Assembly (NCBI RefSeq): GCF_046105845.1
Contig: NZ_CP151004.1
Reading direction: 5' to 3' (one strand)
From: Escherichia coli
GTDB lineage: Bacteria; Pseudomonadota; Gammaproteobacteria; Enterobacterales; Enterobacteriaceae
Length of the DNA stretch: 64,000 nucleotides
The notes beneath the pieces are model-generated. The model made no database searches. It was not told the origin of the DNA and saw only the letters and a list, made by a program, of their open reading frames with translations. The translations under genes and the position numbers were made by a program. Positions 1,687-21,546 of the stretch are shown piece after piece. Position 1 is the first letter of the stretch, and every line of letters begins with the position of its first letter.

Positions 1687-2272
1687 AGTCATCATTGCCA
1701 GGGCCTGGAGCAGGGATCTTTACCAACTTCACCAGGGATTATGGCATTTATTTCCAAACAGACCGGATGCTGCTCGTGATTTTCTTTTTCATGTTGAGAA
1801 GCGAAACACACCAGAAGGCTGTCATGTTTTATTGCAGTCAGCGCAAATACCTGTTTCAACTGCCGTTGCGACAGTCATTAAAACTAAACAGGTTGAATTT
1901 CAACTTCAGGTTGGTGTTCCACTCTATTTTCGGCTTCGGGCAAATCCGATCAAAACTATTCTCGACAATCAAAAGCGCCTGGACAGTAAAGGGAATATTA
2001 AACGCTGTCGGGTTCCGTTAATAAAAGAAGCAGAACAAATCGCGTGGTTGCAACGTAAATTGGGCAATGCGGCGCGCGTTGAAGATGTGCATCCCATATC
2101 GGAACGGCCACAGTATTTTTCTGGTGATGGTAAAAGTGGAAAGATCCAAACGGTTTGCTTTGAAGGGGTGATCACCATCAACGACGCGCCAGTGTTAATA
2201 GATCTTGTACAGCAAGGTATTGGGCCAGCTAAATCGATGGGATGTGGCTTGCTATCTTTGGCTCCACTGTGA
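1673..2272 (+). CDS. casE: CRISPR repeat endoribonuclease CasE (Cas6e)
   Basis: 199-aa ORF MYLSKVIIARAWSRDLYQLHQGLWHLF..., recognised as Cas6e; position between casD and cas1. Confidence 0.92.
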   Translation: MYLSKVIIARAWSRDLYQLHQGLWHLFPNRPDAARDFLFHVEKRNTPEGCHVLLQSAQIPVSTAVATVIKTKQVEFQLQVGVPLYFRLRANPIKTILDNQKRLDSKGNIKRCRVPLIKEAEQIAWLQRKLGNAARVEDVHPISERPQYFSGDGKSGKIQTVCFEGVITINDAPVLIDLVQQGIGPAKSMGCGLLSLAPL

Positions 2273-2287
2273 TTGAGGTGTAATAAA

Positions 2288-3491
<1,204 letters not shown>

Positions 3492-3596
3492 AAACAAAGA
3501 ATTAGCTGATCTTTAATAATAAGGAAATGTTACATTAAGGTTGGTGGGTTGTTTTTATGGGAAAAAATGCTTTAAGAACAAATGTATACTTTTAGA
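3492..3596 (+). promoter_or_regulatory. CRISPR leader (AT-rich, contains the array promoter)
   Basis: 105-bp AT-rich segment between the cas2 stop and the first repeat; in type I-E systems the leader sits here and new spacers are added at this end. Confidence 0.6.
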
Positions 3597-5089
3597 GAGT
3601 TCCCCGCGCCAGCGGGGATAAACCGTCCGATCCGAAAAAACGGGTAGTCGCCTACGAGAGTTCCCCGCGCCAGCGGGGATAAACCGCCCAGTGGCGAAGG
3701 GCAACGTAAGCATAAAACGAGTTCCCCGCGCCAGCGGGGATAAACCGGGGTAACACCGTGGCAGCAAGTCGATCCGCTGGAGTTCCCCGCGCCAGCGGGG
3801 ATAAACCTGATGCGCGCCGACTTGAATCACTGCGCATGGCGAGTTCCCCGCGCCAGCGGGGATAAACCGATGGACCGTGCCGCTTTTCGCCACCTGACGC
3901 CGAGTTCCCCGCGCCAGCGGGGATAAACCGTGGCTCCGGTCGGGGCCCGCCGCTTGCGGTGGGAGTTCCCCGCGCCAGCGGGGATAAACCGGTGCGTGAA
4001 TTATCTATCCAGGCAAAAGTAACGAGTTCCCCGCGCCAGCGGGGATAAACCGCATATTTTTCAGGATATCTATAAATGGGCGGGGAGTTCCCCGCGCCAG
4101 CGGGGATAAACCGCTCATCAAAATAATCGGCATTGTCAGAAATCCGAGTTCCCCGCGCCAGCGGGGATAAACCGTGCACTGGCTGACTACGCCGCAGCAC
4201 ATAAATGAGTTCCCCGCGCCAGCGGGGATAAACCGATAATTGATGCGATCTGGTCCACTACAGTGGCGAGTTCCCCGCGCCAGCGGGGATAAACCGTAGT
4301 TGCTGTTTAGGCTGTGTTGTGGTTACCAGAGTTCCCCGCGCCAGCGGGGATAAACCGACCTGCTCGCGATGCGTCTGCCGCTGGAACCCGAGTTCCCCGC
4401 GCCAGCGGGGATAAACCGTTGCGCGATCCATCGCTCAGCTTTGATCATGAGAGTTCCCCGCGCCAGCGGGGATAAACCGCGCAGCGCCGACGAACTGGAC
4501 GGCGCTATAAAGAGTTCCCCGCGCCAGCGGGGATAAACCGATGTGGCAGAAATTGATGGAGCGGATGTGCGAGAGTTCCCCGCGCCAGCGGGGATAAACC
4601 GATTTAGATACGGCACACAGGAATGCGCTGGATGAGTTCCCCGCGCCAGCGGGGATAAACCGCGGCTGGCTGTAATAATGCACGGCAGTGTGACGAGTTC
4701 CCCGCGCCAGCGGGGATAAACCGTGAATAATAAGGCGCTGACGGGCGATATTACGGAGTTCCCCGCGCCAGCGGGGATAAACCGGAACAACCTGAACGGA
4801 TGCCACCTTTTCACCTGAGTTCCCCGCGCCAGCGGGGATAAACCAACCGTCAGCATAGACCCATCTAGTCAGATTCTGTGTTCCCCGCGCCAGCGGGGAT
4901 AAACCGGCCCATTCCCCCCATACCGGCGGCAAGTTTAAGTGTTCCCCGCGCCAGCGGGGATAAACCGATTCCGTCAAATTTATCACTCAACGCCAGTTCG
5001 TGTTCCCCGCGCCAGCGGGGATAAACCGGGCGCACTGGATGCGATGATGGATATCACTTAGAATTCCCCGCCCCTGCGGTAGAACTCGC
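3597..5089 (+). CRISPR. Type I-E CRISPR array: 24 full 29-bp repeats, one degenerate terminal repeat, 24 spacers of 32 bp
   Basis: Repeat GAGTTCCCCGCGCCAGCGGGGATAAACCG recurs with an exact 61-bp period from 3597 to 5000. The last three full repeats begin GTG instead of GAG, and repeats 4 and 21 differ in their last base. Degenerate repeat GAATTCCCCGCCCCTGCGGTAGAACTCG at 5061..5089. Confidence 0.97.
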
Positions 5090-7308: not shown

Positions 7309-8736
7309 ATGAACACCGCACTTGCACAACAAATCGCCAATGAAGGCGGCGTCGAAGCCTGGATGATTGCGCAACAACATAAAAGCCTGCTGCGTTTTCT
7401 GACCTGTGGTAGCGTCGATGACGGCAAAAGTACTCTGATTGGTCGTCTGCTGCATGATACCCGCCAAATCTACGAAGATCAGCTCTCATCGCTGCATAAC
7501 GACAGTAAGCGTCACGGCACTCAGGGCGAAAAGCTGGATCTGGCACTGCTGGTGGACGGCCTGCAAGCTGAGCGCGAACAGGGCATCACCATTGACGTGG
7601 CTTACCGTTATTTCTCTACCGAGAAGCGCAAATTTATTATCGCCGACACCCCTGGGCACGAGCAGTACACCCGCAATATGGCGACCGGCGCATCGACATG
7701 CGAACTGGCGATCTTACTGATCGACGCCCGTAAAGGCGTGCTCGATCAAACCCGTCGTCACAGTTTTATCTCCACACTGTTGGGGATCAAACATCTGGTC
7801 GTGGCGATCAACAAAATGGATCTGGTGGGTTACAGTGAAGAGACGTTCACCCGTATTCGCGAAGATTATCTGACGTTTGCCGGGCAGCTGCCGGGTAATC
7901 TGGATATCCGCTTTGTGCCGCTCTCTGCACTGGAAGGCGACAACGTGGCTTCGCAAAGTGAAAGTATGCCGTGGTACAGCGGTCCGACACTGCTCGAAGT
8001 GCTGGAAACCGTGGAGATCCAGCGAGTGGTGGATGCCCAGCCAATGCGCTTCCCGGTGCAGTACGTTAATCGCCCGAATCTCGATTTTCGTGGCTACGCC
8101 GGAACGCTGGCATCCGGTCGAGTGGAAGTCGGGCAACGTGTCAAAGTGCTGCCCTCTGGTGTGGAATCAAACGTCGCGCGGATCGTGACTTTTGATGGCG
8201 ATCGCGAAGAAGCCTTTGCCGGAGAAGCGATCACCCTGGTGCTGACGGATGAGATCGACATCAGCCGTGGCGATCTGCTGCTGGCGGCAGACGAATCGTT
8301 ACCGGCTGTGCAGAGCGCGTCGGTGGATGTGGTATGGATGGCGGAACAGCCGCTTTCCCCAGGCCAGAGTTACGACATCAAAATTGCCGGTAAGAAGACG
8401 CGTGCTCGTGTTGATGGCATTCGTTATCAGGTTGATATTAATAACCTTACCCAACGCGAAGTTGAAAACCTGCCGCTGAACGGCATCGGCCTGGTGGATC
8501 TCACTTTTGACGAGCCACTGGTGTTAGATCGTTATCAGCAAAATCCGGTTACCGGTGGGCTGATTTTTATCGATCGCCTGAGCAATGTGACCGTGGGTGC
8601 CGGTATGGTGCACGAGCCAGTTAGCCAGGCAACTGCTGCGCCATCTGAATTCAGTGCATTCGAACTGGAATTGAATGCCCTGGTTCGCCGCCACTTTCCA
8701 CACTGGGGCGCGCGCGATTTACTGGGGGATAAATAA
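7309..8736 (+). CDS. cysN: Sulfate adenylyltransferase subunit 1 (GTPase)
   Basis: 475-aa ORF with GTPase motifs ([21 protein letters not shown]); 1-nt gap after cysD. Confidence 0.95.
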
Positions 8737-8738
8737 TA

Positions 8739-9344
8739 ATGGCGCTGCATGACGAAAACGTCGTCTGGCATAGCCATCCAGTCACTGTACAACAACGCGA
8801 GCTACACCACGGTCATCGCGGTGTAGTGCTGTGGTTTACCGGCCTCTCCGGGTCCGGTAAATCAACGGTCGCCGGGGCGCTGGAGGAGGCGTTACATAAA
8901 CTCGGCGTCAGTACGTATCTGCTGGATGGCGATAATGTTCGCCACGGATTATGCAGCGATCTCGGTTTTAGCGATGCCGATCGTAAAGAAAATATCCGTC
9001 GCGTCGGTGAAGTGGCGAATTTGATGGTTGAAGCCGGACTGGTGGTGCTGACCGCATTCATCTCGCCACACCGCGCCGAACGCCAGATGGTTCGCGAACG
9101 CGTAGGAGAAGGGCGCTTTATCGAAGTGTTTGTCGATACACCGCTGGCGATTTGCGAAGCCCGCGATCCAAAAGGCTTATATAAGAAAGCGCGTGCCGGT
9201 GAACTGCGTAACTTTACGGGAATAGATTCTGTTTACGAAGCGCCTGAATCGGCAGAAATTCATCTCAATGGTGAACAATTAGTAACAAATTTGGTACAGC
9301 AATTATTAGATCTGTTGAGACAGAACGATATTATCAGATCCTGA
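8739..9344 (+). CDS. cysC: Adenylylsulfate (APS) kinase
   Basis: 201-aa ORF with P-loop GLSGSGKST, recognised as CysC. Confidence 0.95.
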
Positions 9345-9393
9345 GACACCACCGGGTTTCCATGCCCGGTTCGTCAAAGTAACAGGATCAAAT

Positions 9394-9717
9394 ATGCGTA
9401 ATAGCCATAACATTACACTAACAAATAACGACAGCCTTACTGAGGATGAAGAAACCACATGGTCACTGCCTGGTGCCGTGGTCGGTTTTATCTCATGGTT
9501 ATTTGCGCTGGCGATGCCGATGTTGATTTATGGCTCTAACACGCTGTTCTTCTTTATCTACACCTGGCCTTTCTTTCTGGCACTGATGCCTGTCGCGGTA
9601 GTGGTGGGGATTGCGCTGCATTCATTGATGGACGGAAAGCTACGCTACAGTATTGTTTTCACCCTGGTGACAGTAGGCATTATGTTTGGCGCACTGTTTA
9701 TGTGGCTACTGGGCTAA
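9394..9717 (+). CDS. ygbE: Small inner-membrane protein YgbE
   Basis: 107-aa hydrophobic ORF in the conserved position downstream of cysC. Confidence 0.8.
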   Translation: MRNSHNITLTNNDSLTEDEETTWSLPGAVVGFISWLFALAMPMLIYGSNTLFFFIYTWPFFLALMPVAVVVGIALHSLMDGKLRYSIVFTLVTVGIMFGALFMWLLG

Positions 9718-9910
9718 TTTGTACTTTCTTGTCTCCTCTGTTCATAATTCAAACCGTAACTAATAATGAGATTATGTTCTGCACGCCCTGGGTATACGTA
9801 ACAATGGACAAATGTGGTACATTTGCCCGCGTTGTCGCGGTATCCCCAACAGAGGATGTAGAGTCGTCTTCGGATGCATGGGATGATGATGCCGTTTTTC
9901 AGGGGGCAGG

Positions 9911-10222
9911 ATGGGTAAACTAACGCTGCTGTTGCTGGCTATTCTGGTCTGGCTACAGTATTCGCTGTGGTTCGGTAAGAACGGTATACATGACTATACC
10001 CGCGTCAATGATGATGTGGCGGCACAGCAAGCTACAAACGCGAAACTTAAAGCGCGAAACGATCAACTTTTTGCCGAAATTGACGATCTCAATGGCGGCC
10101 AGGAGGCGCTCGAAGAGCGTGCGCGTAATGAACTCAGCATGACCAGGCCGGGCGAAACTTTTTATCGTCTGGTGCCTGACGCGTCGAAGCGCGCACAGTC
10201 TGCGGGGCAAAACAATCGATAA
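9911..10222 (+). CDS. ftsB: Cell division protein FtsB
   Basis: 103-aa ORF with N-terminal transmembrane segment and coiled-coil region; upstream of ispDF. Confidence 0.9.
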
Positions 10223-10240
10223 ATCAGCCCAGGAATTAAC

Positions 10241-10951
10241 ATGGCAACCACTCATTTGGATGTTTGCGCCGTGGTTCCGGCGGCCGGATTTGGCCGTCGA
10301 ATGCAAACGGAATGTCCTAAGCAATATCTCTCAATCGGTAATCAAACCATTCTTGAACACTCGGTGCATGCGCTGCTGGCGCACCCCCGGGTGAAACATG
10401 TCGTCATTGCCATAAGTCCTGGCGATAGCCGTTTTGCACAACTTCCTCTGGCGAATCATCCGCAAATCACCGTTGTAGATGGCGGTGATGAGCGTGCCGA
10501 TTCCGTGCTGGCAGGTTTGAAAGCCGCTGGCGACGCGCAGTGGGTATTGGTGCATGACGCCGCTCGTCCTTGTCTGCATCAGGATGACCTCGCGCGATTG
10601 TTGGCGTTGAGCGAAACCAGCCGCACGGGGGGGATCCTCGCCGCACCAGTGCGCGATACGATGAAACGTGCCGAACCGGGCAAAAATGCCATTGCTCATA
10701 CCGTTGATCGCAACGGCTTATGGCACGCGCTGACGCCGCAATTTTTCCCTCGTGAGCTGTTACATGACTGCCTGACGCGCGCTCTAAATGAAGGCGCTAC
10801 CATTACCGACGAAGCCTCGGCGCTGGAATATTGCGGATTTCATCCGCAGTTGGTCGAAGGCCGCGCGGATAACATTAAAGTCACGCGCCCGGAAGATTTG
10901 GCACTGGCCGAGTTTTACCTCACCCGAACCATCCATCAGGAGAATACATAA
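10241..10951 (+). CDS. ispD: 2-C-methyl-D-erythritol 4-phosphate cytidylyltransferase
   Basis: 236-aa ORF recognised as IspD; shares a 1-nt overlap with ispF. Confidence 0.93.
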
Positions 10952-15179: not shown

Positions 15180-16172
15180 ATGAGTCAGAATACGCTGAAA
15201 GTTCATGATTTAAATGAAGATGCGGAATTTGATGAGAACGGAGTTGAGGTTTTTGACGAAAAGGCCTTAGTAGAAGAGGAACCCAGTGATAACGATTTGG
15301 CCGAAGAGGAACTGTTATCGCAGGGAGCCACACAGCGTGTGTTGGACGCGACTCAGCTTTACCTTGGTGAGATTGGTTATTCACCACTGTTAACGGCCGA
15401 AGAAGAAGTTTATTTTGCGCGTCGCGCACTGCGTGGAGATGTTGCCTCCCGCCGCCGGATGATCGAGAGTAACTTGCGTCTGGTGGTAAAAATTGCCCGC
15501 CGTTATGGCAATCGTGGTCTGGCGTTGCTGGACCTGATCGAAGAGGGCAACCTGGGGCTGATCCGCGCGGTAGAGAAGTTTGACCCGGAACGTGGTTTCC
15601 GCTTCTCAACATACGCAACCTGGTGGATTCGCCAGACGATCGAACGGGCGATTATGAACCAAACCCGTACTATTCGTTTGCCGATTCACATCGTAAAGGA
15701 GCTGAACGTTTACCTGCGAACCGCACGCGAGTTGTCCCATAAACTGGACCACGAACCAAGTGCGGAAGAGATCGCAGAGCAACTGGATAAGCCAGTTGAT
15801 GACGTCAGCCGTATGCTTCGTCTTAACGAGCGCATTACCTCGGTAGACACCCCGCTGGGTGGTGATTCCGAAAAAGCGTTGCTGGACATCCTGGCCGATG
15901 AAAAAGAGAACGGTCCGGAAGATACCACGCAAGATGACGATATGAAGCAGAGCATCGTCAAATGGCTGTTCGAGCTGAACGCCAAACAGCGTGAAGTACT
16001 GGCACGTCGATTCGGTTTGCTGGGGTACGAAGCGGCAACACTGGAAGATGTAGGTCGTGAAATTGGCCTCACCCGTGAACGTGTTCGCCAGATTCAGGTT
16101 GAAGGCCTGCGCCGTTTGCGCGAAATCCTGCAAACGCAGGGGCTGAATATCGAAGCGCTGTTCCGCGAGTAA
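15180..16172 (+). CDS. rpoS: RNA polymerase sigma factor RpoS (sigma-38), full length
   Basis: Internal ATG of track ORF 15144..16172 gives [34 protein letters not shown]... (330 aa); no premature stop, codon 33 reads E. Confidence 0.95.
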
Positions 16173-16189
16173 GTAAGCATCTGTCAGAA

Positions 16190-16224
16190 AGGCCAGTCTC
16201 AAGCGAGGCTGGCCTTTTTCTTTT
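16190..16224 (+). terminator. Rho-independent terminator of rpoS
   Basis: GC-rich hairpin AGGCCAGTCTCAAGCGAGGCTGGCCT followed by a T-run, about 18 nt after the rpoS stop. Confidence 0.6.
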
Positions 16225-16292
16225 GTTTGGGAAGTCGGTGTGTTTTGTCGCCTGGATAAGACTCGTCAGCGTCCTACCCGGCAATCAGCATC

Positions 16293-16637
16293 CTATTTGC
16301 TCATCATCTTGCGCACCAACTGCATAAACAGCTCCTTCTCTTCTGCACTCAAACGCCCCAAAAATTCCTCATCCACACTGTCACCAATCGGTATCGCCGC
16401 AGCAAGTACCTTTTCTCCTTCGGCAGTCAGCCAGACAAAGCGACGCCGCTTGTCAGCGGCGTCATGTTCACGTCTGACTAAGCCACGATTTTCCATTCTT
16501 GCCAACATTTCTGCCAGCGTTGCTTTGGTGCTGACTGCTGCTTCTATCAGTGCCACCTGTTCGATACCAGGCTTATCAGCAATGGCGCGCATCACCGCGT
16601 ACTGTGGTTTGGTCAGGTCAGGTAACTCGACCCCGGC
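16293..16637 (-). pseudogene. MarR/SlyA-family regulator, apparently 5'-truncated
   Basis: The 100-aa track ORF begins inside the winged-helix region (…LTKPQYAVMMRAIADKPGIEQVALIEAAVSTKATLAEMLARMENRGLVRRE…); the frame stays open upstream only to a stop at about 16638, with no room for the N-terminal helix. Confidence 0.55.
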
Positions 16638-16793
16638 TCAAGCCCGGCCGGGATCACCGACAAGCTGATTATCGACGCCACCACGCCTGTCGCCCCGGAC
16701 AACCGTGGTCACTACAGCCAGCCCGTGGTGGATTTGCCGGAAACCAAAGCCTGGGCTGAAAAACTGACCGCTATGCTGGCCGCACGTAAATAA
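16626..16793 (+). pseudogene. 3' fragment (about 55 codons) of a UbiD-family decarboxylase gene
   Basis: Frame without a start codon translates to …GITDKLIIDATTPVAPDNRGHYSQPVVDLPETKAWAEKLTAMLAARK*, which looks like a UbiD-family C-terminus; it is bounded upstream by a stop at about 16623 and abuts the truncated MarR gene. Confidence 0.5.
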
Positions 16794-16803
16794 GGAGAAC
16801 AAG

Positions 16804-17040
16804 ATGATTTGTCCACGTTGTGCCGATGAACAGATTGAAGTGATGGCGAAATCGCCGGTAAAAGATGTCTGGACGGTCTACCAGTGCCAGCATTGCCTCT
16901 ATACCTGGCGCGATACCGAACCGCTACGCCGCACCAGCCGCGAACATTATCCCGAAGCGTTCCGCATGACGCAGAAAGATATTGATGACGCGCCGATGGT
17001 GCCGAGCATCCCGCCGCTGCTGGCGGCAGATAAGCGTTAA
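16804..17040 (+). CDS. Small zinc-ribbon protein resembling the D subunit of hydroxyarylic acid decarboxylases (EcdD/BsdD-like)
   Basis: 78-aa ORF MICPRCADEQIEV…VYQCQHCLYTW with two CxxC pairs; AAGGAG ribosome-binding site 7 nt upstream; lies right after the UbiD-like fragment. Confidence 0.6.
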   Translation: MICPRCADEQIEVMAKSPVKDVWTVYQCQHCLYTWRDTEPLRRTSREHYPEAFRMTQKDIDDAPMVPSIPPLLAADKR

Positions 17041-17080
17041 TAAAAAGTGCCGGGTAGTGGCTTTGCTTTACCCGGCCTCA

Positions 17081-17737
17081 TTACTTTATTTTATAAAATG
17101 ACAGCCGCCCGCTTTTCGGCGATCCGGTATCAATATAAATCTGGTTAGCGAACGTCTGAATGTTATCAAACATCATATGTCCAAATATAAAATAATCAGC
17201 GCCGTTTATTTGTTGTAACTCGCCATTAAGCGATTTCTGCACACGATCAACAGGCCAGAGTAGTTCTCTCTCCGCTATTTCTTTGTCAAAGAGATATTCA
17301 TTCCCCGGATAATCTGCATGTGCGATGACATATTTTATTATGTCGTTAGTGATTTCAATAATATGTGGAAGGCGATGAAATTTCAGCAACAGATTTATTG
17401 CTTCTTGTTGTTCCGTCTCATTTAATTCAAAGAACCAGTCGCCGCCGCTGGCAAGCCACATATTTCCATCGCCAGTTTCGAATGCATCAAGCGCCATCGC
17501 TTCATGGTTGCCTTTAACCGACGTAAACCAGGGTTGGTTTAGCAGGTGCAGCACGTTAAGACTCTCCGGCCCACGATCAATATTATCGCCGACAGAAATA
17601 AGTAAGTCGGTTTCAGGGCAAAAAGAGAGTTGATGTAAGCGGGATTGTAATAATTGATAGTCACCATGAATATCACCAACGGCCCATATATGGCGATAGT
17701 GATGGGTATTGATTTTTTGATAGCGTGTAGATGGCAT
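17081..17737 (-). CDS. pphB: Serine/threonine protein phosphatase 2
   Basis: 218-aa ORF with metallophosphatase motifs (GDIHGD, GDNIDRG, GNHE); adjacent to mutS. Confidence 0.9.
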   Translation of the reverse strand: MPSTRYQKINTHHYRHIWAVGDIHGDYQLLQSRLHQLSFCPETDLLISVGDNIDRGPESLNVLHLLNQPWFTSVKGNHEAMALDAFETGDGNMWLASGGDWFFELNETEQQEAINLLLKFHRLPHIIEITNDIIKYVIAHADYPGNEYLFDKEIAERELLWPVDRVQKSLNGELQQINGADYFIFGHMMFDNIQTFANQIYIDTGSPKSGRLSFYKIK

Positions 17738-17842
17738 GGTTTTACCCTGTAAAATAAGCTTTCCTATTATACAGGGTATTTTTATTTGATTCGTCAGTTG
17801 TCGTTAATATTCCCGATAGCAAAAGACTATCGGGAATTGTTA

Positions 17843-20404
17843 TTACACCAGACTCTTCAACCGATAAATCCACTCCAGCGCCTGACGCGGAGTCAGTGAA
17901 TCCGGGTCGAGGTTTTCCAGTGCCTCGACCGCAGGCGAAGTTTCTTCTGGTACGGGCAGCAAAGACATTTGCGTACCATCCACTTGCGTAGCGGCGGCGT
18001 TCGGCGAAATGCTTTCCAGCTCACGCAGTTTTTGCCGTGCGCGCTTAATCACCTCTTTTGGCACGCCCGCCAGAGCAGCAACCGCCAGGCCGTAGCTTTT
18101 GCTCGCCGCGCCATCCTGCACGCTATGCATAAAGGCAATGGTGTCGCCGTGCTCCAGTGCATCGAGATGCACGTTGGCGACGCCTTCCATTTTCTCCGGT
18201 AACTGGGTCAGCTCGAAATAGTGGGTAGCAAACAGCGTCAATGCCTTAATCTTATTCGCCAGATTTTCTGCGCACGCCCACGCCAGCGACAGACCATCGT
18301 AAGTGGACGTTCCACGCCCGATCTCATCCATTAACACCAGACTGTATTCGGTGGCGTTATGTAAAATATTGGCGGTTTCAGTCATCTCCACCATAAAGGT
18401 TGAGCGCCCGGAAGCCAGGTCATCTGCCGCGCCTACGCGGGTAAAGATGCGATCGATAGGTCCAATCTCGACTTTTTGTGCCGGTACATAGCTGCCGATG
18501 TAGGCCATCAGCGCAATCAGTGCGGTCTGGCGCATATAGGTACTTTTACCGCCCATATTCGGACCGGTAATGATCAACATGCGACGCTGCGGCGACAGGT
18601 TCAGCGGGTTGGCGATAAATGGCTCGTTCAGTACCTGTTCAACCACCGGATGGCGGCCTTCGGTGATGCGAATACCCGGTTTATCAATGAAGGTCGGGCA
18701 GGTGTAGTTCAGCGTATAGGCCCGTTCCGCCAGGTTCACCAGCACGTCGAGTTCCGCCAGCGCGCTCGCGCTCTGTTGCAACGCTTCCAGATGCGGCAAC
18801 AGCAGGTCGAACAACTCTTCATAAAGCTGTTTTTCCAGTGCTAGTGCTTTGCCTTTTGAAGTGAGAACTTTGTCTTCGTACTCTTTTAGCTCTGGAATAA
18901 TGTAGCGCTCGGCGTTTTTCAGCGTCTGGCGACGCATGTAATTGATGGGTGCCAGATGGCTTTGTCCACGGCTGATCTGAATGTAATAACCATGAACCGC
19001 GTTAAAGCCGACTTTCAGCGTGTCCAGGCCAGTACGTTCACGCTCGCGGACTTCCAGACGCTCCAGATAATCGGTCGCGCCGTCAGCCAGCGCGCGCCAC
19101 TCATCCAGCTCTTCGTTATAGCCCGATGCGATAACACCACCGTCGCGTACCAGCACTGGCGGTGTGTCGATGATTGCTCGCTCCAGCAGATCGCGCAGCT
19201 CGGCAAACTCGCCCATCTTCTCACGTAGCGCCTGTACCGGAGCGCTATCGACAGTTTCTAACTGCGCACGCAGCTCCGGCAGTTGCTGGAAAGCGTGACG
19301 CATACGGGCCAGATCGCGTGGGCGAGCAGTTCGTAAAGCCAGACGCGCCAGAATACGTTCCAGGTCGCCGACCTGACGCAGTACCGGCTGCAGCTCGGCG
19401 GTGAAATCCTGCAATGCGCCAATAGTTTGCTGGCGCTCAAGCAACACGCGGGTATCGCGCACTGGCATATGCAGCCAGCGTTTCAGCATACGACTACCCA
19501 TCGGCGTTACAGTGCAGTCGAGCACTGAAGCCAGCGTGTTTTCCGCACCGCCCGCCAGGTTCTGAGTAATTTCCAGGTTACGACGTGTCGCGGCATCCAT
19601 AATGATGCTGTCCTGCTCACGTTCCATGGTGATAGAACGAATATGTGGCAGGGTCGTACGTTGGGTATCTTTCGCATACTGCAACAGACAACCGGCAGCA
19701 CAAAGTCCGCGCGGCGCGTTCTCGACGCCAAAACCGACCAGATCGCGGGTGCCAAATTGCAGATTCAACTGCTGGCGCGCGGTGTCGATTTCAAACTCCC
19801 ACAGCGGGCGACGGCGCAGGCCGCGACGGCCTTCAATTAACGACATTTCAGCAAAATCTTCTGCATACAGCAGTTCCGCAGGATTAGTGCGTTGCAGTTC
19901 TGCCGCCATCGTTTCCCGGTCAGCCGGTTCGCTCAGGCGAAAACGACCGGAACTGATATCCAGCGTCGCGTAGCCGAAACCTTTGCTGTCCTGCCAGATA
20001 GCCGCCAGCAGGTTGTCCTGACGCTCCTGCAACAGGGCTTCATCGCTGATGGTGCCTGGCGTAACGATACGCACAACTTTGCGCTCAACCGGACCTTTGC
20101 TGGTCGCCGGATCGCCAATTTGTTCGCAGATGGCAACGGACTCGCCCTGATTCACCAGTTTGGCGAGGTAGTTTTCCACCGCATGGTAGGGAATCCCCGC
20201 CATCGGGATCGGCTCTCCCGCCGAAGCACCGCGTTTGGTCAGTGAAATATCCAGCAGTTGCGATGCGCGTTTTGCGTCGTCATAAAACAGTTCATAAAAA
20301 TCACCCATCCGGTAAAACAGCAGGATCTCGGGATGCTGGGCTTTCAGCTTGAGATACTGCTGCATCATGGGCGTATGGGCGTCGAAATTTTCTATTGCAC
20401 TCAT
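17843..20404 (-). CDS. mutS: DNA mismatch repair protein MutS
   Basis: 853-aa [43 protein letters not shown]… with Walker [10 protein letters not shown]. Confidence 0.97.
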
Positions 20405-21073: not shown

Positions 21074-21502
21074 TTACGCTTTGGTGGCAATCAGGATGGC
21101 TGATGCTTTGATCAATGCAATAACGCGTGAGCCAGTGGTGAGTTTCATTTCATCCTGACTTTCATTTGTTACCACTGCCACAATTTCAAAACCCGCATCC
21201 GTTTTGATATGGACAGTGGCGTTCACTGCGCCTTCGGTGATTGTCGACACGCTGCCAGCAAACTGGTTGCGAGCAGAGAATTTCAGTCCACAGTCTTCCG
21301 TTGCCAGCGTTACCCACGGGGCTTTAATCAGGGCAATCGCTTCTTTCCCTTTCGCCAGACCCAGAGCCTGCTGGCTGCTGTGAGTCACAATTGCCACCAG
21401 CTTTGCACCACCTGCCAGCGTCAGTTCTACTTCGTCATTCACCGCGCCCATTGCTACTGCGCTAACTGTTCCGGTTAATTGATTTCTTGCTGAAACTGCC
21501 AT
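21074..21502 (-). CDS. Tandem TOBE (Mop-like) molybdate/tungstate-binding protein
   Basis: 142 aa from the ATG that has a strong GAAAGGAGG ribosome-binding site; two ~68-aa repeats each starting with the SARNQ(L/F)xG(T/S)V Mop signature; starts 44 nt after the fhlA stop on the same strand. Confidence 0.75.
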   Translation of the reverse strand: MAVSARNQLTGTVSAVAMGAVNDEVELTLAGGAKLVAIVTHSSQQALGLAKGKEAIALIKAPWVTLATEDCGLKFSARNQFAGSVSTITEGAVNATVHIKTDAGFEIVAVVTNESQDEMKLTTGSRVIALIKASAILIATKA

Positions 21503-21546
21503 ACTGCCTCCTTTCATTGAATGTTGATCGAGTATAACCACATCTG

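Follow-up and report, generated by a model that had tools for sequence, protein, structure and literature searches.

A deletion scar of the hosA-decarboxylase cluster between rpoS and pphB, a structural allele of the mutS-rpoS region of Escherichia coli

Introduction

The mutS-rpoS region of Escherichia coli exists in four main structures (PMC4209514; PMC5491219; PMC3074542). The O157 type contains hosA (there called slyA) together with decarboxylase genes and has no ygbN (PMC4209514); the K-12 type contains ygbI-N alone, the B2 type contains another segment, and the long EPEC type contains both the decarboxylase cluster and ygbI-N. The O157:H7/EHEC-1 type is the 'pattern I' of Ewers et al. 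2014 (PMC4209514), and it also comes from Herbelin et al. 2000, as that study is cited in PMC5491219. The region has already been noted for recombination (PMC4209514).

In the 64,000-nucleotide stretch of E. coli DNA analysed here (referred to as the window), rpoS and pphB are separated by a short segment that fits none of these structures as a whole. It had been read, from its letters and open reading frames, as a decarboxylase configuration which has lost a ubiX-like gene and most of a ubiD-like gene (the original prediction). What is this segment, how did it arise, and how is it distributed among E. coli strains?

Results

Gene content of the rpoS-pphB interval

The gene order in the window is nlpD-rpoS-(908 bp)-pphB-mutS-ygbA, and a matching order is found in RefSeq loci. 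The stop codon of rpoS occupies positions 16170-16172 and that of pphB, on the minus strand, 17081-17083, so that 908 bp lie between the two genes, close to the 900 bp or so estimated at the outset. The features of the region are listed in Table 1. The rpoS DNA of the window is 100% identical to rpoS in many E. coli genomes. Its codon 33 (15277..15279) is GAG and differs from the K-12 allele; many ECOR strains are listed with this E33 form, as Q33E with respect to K-12 (PMC3074542).

Table 1. Features of the window around the rpoS-pphB interval
Feature	Position	Strand	Evidence or remark
rpoS, intact, 330 aa, E33 allele	15181..16172	+	ORF; left edge of the variable interval
rpoS intrinsic terminator, hairpin followed by T run	16186..16219	+	Terminator scan, 15-pair stem; spared by the deletion
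hosA pseudogene (MarR/SlyA family), codons 25-135 and stop kept	16293..16628	-	Alignment to 135-aa alleles
Deletion junction, one remaining AACTCG copy (6-bp microhomology)	16624..16629		blastn overlap
UbiD-family subunit C 3' remnant (ecdC/yclC/kpdC/vdcC), codons 421-475 and stop	16626..16793	+	NCBIfam NF041204
Subunit D gene (ecdD/vdcD), intact, 78 aa	16804..17040	+	NCBIfam NF041205
pphB (Ser/Thr phosphatase), intact	17081..17737	-	ORF; right edge of the interval
mutS, intact, 853 aa, divergent mosaic allele	17843..20404	-	ORF

The terminator region of rpoS is the sole part of the interval common to K-12 and B2 strains (query positions 1-46/53); K-12 strains match the first 46 nt only, and ST131 strains the first 53 nt only. 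When the interval was scanned against Rfam, sub-threshold matches alone were returned, and these fell on the rpoS terminator. At the other end, an inverted repeat (GCCGGGTA ... TACCCGGC) was observed at 17047..17078 between the convergent genes ecdD and pphB, and it is kept in all O157-type loci. This repeat is probably a terminator serving both genes; the consensus terminator scan did not flag it because it has no T run.

A separate observation concerns the far side of mutS. Between ygbA and fhlA, an ORF on the minus strand (21074..21541; 155 aa from a GTG as listed) occupies the place where RefSeq loci annotate a 142-aa TOBE-domain protein, which is present in many genomes. The stretch of about 480 bp with this ORF is missing from the metagenome contig L014, and the locus L021 is without a TOBE gene call. 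A length polymorphism of the fhlA-mutS amplicon (1.2-kb vs 1.67-kb) was reported to be exclusive to B2 'pattern III' strains (PMC4209514). Presence or absence of the TOBE stretch fits this polymorphism, but the loci compared here contradict its exclusivity to B2 'pattern III'.

The hosA remnant

The homology of the MarR-like remnant to the complete HosA of 135 aa begins at codon 25 and extends to the stop; over these 111 codons the remnant is 99% identical to intact alleles. Alignment with three full-length 135-aa alleles indicated that hosA codons 1-24, corresponding to helix alpha-1, are absent from the window, which agrees with the initial description of a minus-strand MarR/SlyA-like gene without its N-terminal region. 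The NCBIfam MarR-family matches begin at profile position ~34-35 in the remnant, as against position 16 in the full-length protein. What is retained is the winged helix-turn-helix core (MarR-family profile match from ~34 to the end), while the N-terminal dimer/hinge helix, the start codon, the promoter and the 146-bp upstream region are all missing. The 100-aa ORF described originally is indeed truncated, although the extent of homology was underestimated: the longest ORF starts from an internal GTG (16595), and homology reaches 11 codons further, up to the junction. With residues 25-135 only, the ORF cannot be taken for a full-length family member. The label slyA-like was right as to the MarR/SlyA family, but the gene is hosA and not slyA proper, as seen from the 99% identity of the intact allele to PDB 8AGA ('Transcriptional regulator HosA') and from the GenBank records, in which the truncated product is called hosA.

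His9, Arg12, Phe15, His18 and Trp22 have been reported as the ligand/dimer hinge residues of HosA (bioRxiv 10.1101/2024.04.24.590444). All five fall within the deleted codons 1-24. The phenotype reported for HosA concerns motility. Because both the hinge residues and the promoter are lost, the regulator would be dead, and the anatomy of the gene predicts a non-functional HosA in carriers of the scar.

Remnants of the decarboxylase operon

To the right of the junction, the subunit C remnant matches the VdcC model NF041204 at positions 418-466 of 467 (E = 3e-15, 55.5 bits). The cut-off of this model is 650 bits and the intact gene of locus L007 scores 788.9 bits, so the fragment falls far short of a full-length VdcC match. 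Its DNA shares 96.7% identity with the 3'-terminal part of intact subunit C genes (L001 8526..8695). The 55-codon fragment is therefore clearly UbiD/VdcC, as had been proposed, and the possibility that it has no similarity to UbiD can be set aside. It has no in-frame start codon, its stop lies at 16791-16793, and for this frame the ORF list has no entry of 30 aa or more.

The small D-subunit-like gene originally described as intact is indeed so: ecdD covers profile positions 1-70 of 70 of the VdcD model NF041205 (121.2 bits vs a cut-off of 30). The exact EcdD protein is encoded on at least 1,000 contigs, and ecdD stays intact in all scar carriers. Its intactness could mean residual function; equally, 78 codons can survive by chance. 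A promoter scan of 16100..17150 found no sigma-70-like promoter able to drive ecdD, which is weak negative evidence. Because subunits B and C are gone, ecdD is an orphan, without the operon promoter and without its B/C partners. The missing UbiX-like gene corresponds to the Pad1 protein of PDB 1SBZ. UbiD-type decarboxylases require a cofactor made by the UbiX-type B protein. For a related protocatechuate decarboxylase, co-expression of B raised the activity, whereas D brought negligible benefit and, in one construct, lowered the activity (PMC5779730).

Breakpoints and the missing DNA

Intact clusters from the loci L001, L007, L009, L016, L017 and L026 were aligned with the 908-bp interval, as had been suggested at the outset. 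In blastn comparison with L001 (strain 2017.09.02CC), query positions 1-457 align at 99.6% identity to the rpoS-hosA side; for positions 452-908, which correspond to subunit D and the 3' end of subunit C, the identity is 96.7%. Six nucleotides (AACTCG) are common to both alignments, so that the whole 908 bp is parental and no nucleotide is left unaccounted for; across the intact clusters, each half of the interval matches the corresponding end of the cluster at 96-99.6% identity. Exactly 2,074 bp are missing relative to intact clusters (L007 7631..9704). The junction, first placed somewhere within 16620..16640, could thus be assigned to the hexamer given in Table 1. The missing DNA comprises 71 nt of the hosA 5' end, the 146-bp intergenic region between hosA and ecdB, all 594 nt of ecdB and the first 420 of the 475 codons of ecdC. 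The 146-bp intergenic region must carry the divergent promoters.

A search for short direct repeats at the junction, also suggested originally, led to the same hexamer. AACTCG occurs exactly twice in the rpoS-pphB interval of intact L007, at 7625 and 9699, that is 2,074 bp apart. For a junction placed at random in the interval, the chance of a microhomology of 6 nt or more is P ~0.002, which makes it very likely that the repeat took part in the deletion. The junction has the features of a microhomology deletion, namely a repeat at both parental sites, one copy kept and no insert. No IS sequence, terminal repeat, target-site duplication or filler DNA was found at the junction, and neither longer imperfect homology nor juxtaposing inverted repeats beyond chance were found at the two breakpoints. 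It should be noted that the interval contains 1,237 pairs of direct repeats with a length of 6 nt or more, AACTCG among them, and that 346 of these pairs exceed 6 nt, the longest reaching 13 nt; no feature favours the AACTCG pair because so many such pairs, and so many longer ones, are available.

Place among the mutS-rpoS structural alleles

The 3' end of subunit C is carried by 2,414 of the 5,426 complete genomes. Among the loci compared, L007, L009 and L017 are of the O157 type (pattern I), and L001, L016 and L026 are of the long type (pattern IV). The right half of the window interval runs ungapped through ecdD into pphB, like that of the pattern-I loci L007, L009 and L017, while pattern-IV L001 and L016 depart from the window after ecdD, into ygbN. 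The ygbI-ygbN genes are thus absent from the interval because ecdD directly adjoins pphB. Since this adjacency is that of the O157 type, the window can be read as the O157-type arrangement (rpoS-hosA-ecdB-ecdC-ecdD-pphB-mutS) minus 2,074 bp.

As in pattern I, the same hosA and decarboxylase sequences occupy the same slot beside the rpoS terminator, with ecdD adjoining pphB; the difference is that the window lacks the internal 2,074 bp and that hosA, ecdB and ecdC are not functional genes there. Likewise, in comparison with the EcdBCD/KpdBCD/VdcBCD operon under HosA, the window remnants and the intact D are 96-99% identical, but D alone is complete: the prenyl-FMN synthase B, the catalytic subunit C, and the N-terminus of the regulator together with the promoter have been deleted. 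Because of these deletions, the operon cannot work as described.

These alignments bear out the original reading of a decarboxylase configuration after loss of the ubiX-like gene and most of the ubiD-like gene. The polymorphism of the rpoS-mutS interval, which was mentioned there, is documented in the three studies cited above and is visible in the K-12 match pattern. The layout had been presented as either the ygbI-ygbN cluster or the decarboxylase cluster; both clusters do occur at this site, but many strains have both (pattern IV; L001, L016 and L026) and B2 strains have a third segment. The present allele is not described in PMC4209514, PMC5491219 or PMC3074542, in which four size classes and a few unexplained exceptions are given. 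The scar adds one structural allele to the mutS-rpoS polymorphism already known, and represents ordinary gene decay.

Frequency of the scar

The entire 908 bp was found in one piece in 6 of 5,426 complete RefSeq E. coli genomes: KE55, AST215, VCSW5, VCSW7, 19KM1831 and an O158:H23 strain. In these six RefSeq genomes, both remnants are already called pseudogenes by PGAP ('incomplete; missing N-terminus'). Twenty scar loci were compared, comprising the window, the six complete genomes, TA280, TA124, one metagenome contig and ten SRA/ENA/NCBI assemblies. The junction is identical in 20/20, with one SNP in TA124 located 7 nt left of it; 13 of these loci come from outside the window and the complete-genome set. 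A truncated HosA product identical to that of the window occurs on 446 contigs and sister variants on 57 and 69 contigs; the source names of truncated-HosA records include E. coli KTE66, TA280, TA124 and BWH 32. Because the same junction is seen across independent assemblies and lineages, the scar is a genuine, low-frequency and widely scattered allele.

A 19-mer spanning the junction gave no match among GTDB species representatives. In metagenomes it gave five matches, one of which is a real scar; the other four (L011, L012, L013 and L015) were rejected as chance matches, on unrelated contigs with a GC content of 45-72% and no other similarity to the window. At metagenome database size, the 19-mer probe is not specific.

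The window itself lies outside the complete-genome set, where the best identity is 98.5-98.8% over 15-24 kb. A contig from SRR28309099 (L019) matches it at 100% identity over 12.5 kb, and the exact MutS protein of the window is encoded on at least 23 contigs. The closest named strain is TA280 (L018, GCA_000176655.2), on the rpoS side only. In several of the scar-carrying SRA/NCBI assemblies, rpoS is interrupted, giving two ORFs, or is shortened to 328 aa; in one of them pphB is split (L030 2921..3912, L034 2921..3913, L036 2921..3907 and L031 1356..2012). These split or shortened rpoS genes and the split pphB are further loss-of-function variants nearby.

Mosaic flanks around the junction

At least four haplotypes of the left flank and at least four of the right flank carry the scar. 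In the first 55 nt on the right-hand side of the junction, three haplotypes can be distinguished (CCTAT, TGGCT and, in the window, CCGAC); because of these three near-junction haplotypes, no sequence core is common to all scars. The left flank of the window differs at 2-4 positions from the intact phylogroup-D-like strains 2017.09.02CC, 7/2 and isolate 362, as against 23-34 positions from most other scars. To the right, pphB of the window is 100% identical to that of the soil strain VCSW7, a scar carrier, and the best identity for pphB plus mutS (17081..20404) among the 5,426 complete genomes is 97.8%. The mutS gene alone is 95.8-97.2% identical to the loci compared, with rpoS, 1.7 kb away, being 100% identical to many genomes. 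This sharp rpoS/pphB/mutS mosaic fits the horizontal exchange already known for mutS alleles. No exact intact parent of the right flank was found (best match 98.3%), and the near-junction haplotype of the window had no exact match in intact or scar genomes beyond its own lineage.

Two further observations concern the vicinity of the junction. First, 3 mismatches separate the window from TA280 in the 3.3 kb that end at 16651, as against a difference of 4% to the right of it. The switch at 16651/16652 is a recombination breakpoint, ~25 nt from the junction. Such a breakpoint would be expected if a tract from an intact donor cannot cross the heterology. Secondly, nine scar loci representing four left-flank types have a C at 16671, at a distance of 42 nt from the junction, and 71-mers with 16671C (either 16679 allele) are absent from all intact genomes among the 5,426. 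Because they have 16671C in common, these nine scar loci share descent despite their unlike flanks, and the sharing directly shows replacement of the flanks around a common scar. The nearby 16679T was considered as a scar-specific marker and rejected, as it is also found in intact IAI39-type and O121-type genomes.

Other decays of the same cluster

Two loci carry the cluster in other decayed forms. In L010 (2013C_3997_C1; 1818..4170), an IS91-family element separates remnants of hosA (270 nt) and ecdC (255 nt). In L008 (BEC1-S17-ESBL-09; 7365..10578), subunit C is frameshifted and IS200C is inserted just after rpoS. The accessory operon lost in both is the same as in the scar. Their losses are independent of the scar because the endpoints and mechanisms differ.

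Discussion

The above results can best be accommodated by an ancestor with the O157-type order rpoS, hosA, ecdB, ecdC, ecdD, pphB, mutS, in which one illegitimate recombination event would have joined AACTCG in hosA codons 24-26 to AACTCG in ecdC codons 420-422, removing 2,074 bp and keeping one copy of the hexamer. The likely route would be replication slippage or microhomology-guided end joining, both of which are RecA-independent in E. coli. Known short-homology deletions in E. coli likewise have a repeat at both breakpoints, one copy retained and no insert; compared with such deletions in general, the repeat here is short and its copies are 2 kb apart. Because the repeat has only 6 nt and its copies are so distant, the deletion should be infrequent and the site no hotspot. 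Once formed, the scar has probably been passed on by descent and also exchanged between lineages through homologous recombination, with its flanks replaced almost up to the junction. We regard it as highly probable that the scar is such a single AACTCG-to-AACTCG deletion with one origin, reshuffled in its flanks by recombination.

A low-frequency allele on many backgrounds is, on the other hand, also expected from recurrent mutation. The same 2,074-bp deletion might have arisen independently several times, with the AACTCG pair as a hotspot and each scar haplotype derived from its own intact haplotype. Several flanks look as this would require: the left flank of the O158:H23 strain has 0 differences from intact BEC1, that of the window is nearly identical to the three intact strains mentioned above, the right core of VCSW7 equals that of intact IAI39, and four-gamete violations occur within 18 nt of each other beside the junction. 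However, the repeat pair is undistinguished in length and is outnumbered by longer pairs, no extended homology or flanking inverted repeat pairs the two sites, the scar-private 16671C is common to four left-flank types, the window and TA280 agree closely until ~25 nt from the junction and then diverge, and the other independent losses of the cluster, in 2013C_3997 and BEC1, took other routes and ended elsewhere. Recurrence is thus unlikely in our view. The same can be said of the related idea that the junction was made repeatedly by a sequence- or structure-directed deletion hotspot beside rpoS, attractive as it would be in explaining the many unrelated flanks; we consider this improbable. In a weaker variant of this idea, one old scar may have persisted and spread by hitch-hiking or co-selection with particular rpoS or mutS alleles in this region prone to recombination.

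An involvement of a mobile element, which inserted and then left, or caused an adjacent deletion without any part played by microhomology, was suggested by the IS91 element between the hosA and ecdC remnants of 2013C_3997, by IS200 just after rpoS in BEC1, and by an IS200-family insertion reported at this spot (PMC4209514). Yet the window shows no trace of an element and all of its 908 bp are parental, the junction sits exactly on a repeat present at both parental sites, and the endpoints of the IS91 deletion are different (270 nt of hosA and 255 nt of ecdC kept), all of which leaves an IS-mediated origin very improbable. Least probable of all, to the point of being nearly negligible, is the reading of the short form as ancestral or as an assembly artefact, with 'remnants' that are no such thing. 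Nothing speaks for it except rarity in complete genomes (6/5,426). Against it, at least 2,400 E. coli genomes have full-length versions of the genes from whose interior the fragments come, both fragments end abruptly at the same nucleotide, and the junction recurs in complete long-read genomes and in independent short-read assemblies. An IS-mediated origin, an ancestral short form and an assembly artefact were accordingly all rejected on the parental 908 bp, the gene matches and the reproduced junction.

With a single deletion as the preferred reading, the gene anatomy points to loss of function for both hosA and the decarboxylase operon. Because the UbiX-type gene is gone and the UbiD-type gene is reduced to 55 codons without a start, the cell is predicted to be unable to decarboxylate 4-hydroxybenzoate-type acids non-oxidatively via this operon. 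No effect on rpoS is expected because the gene and its terminator are untouched. In annotation, hosA and the UbiD-like fragment at this locus should be treated as pseudogenes and ecdD as an orphan. The practical weight of the finding is small: it adds one structural allele to the mutS-rpoS typing scheme, and PCR typing with o454/ygbN or yclC primers would mis-score this allele. The scar junction is a unique natural marker whose flanks have been rewritten many times, and it might be used to gauge how near to a heterology boundary recombination tracts end in wild E. coli.
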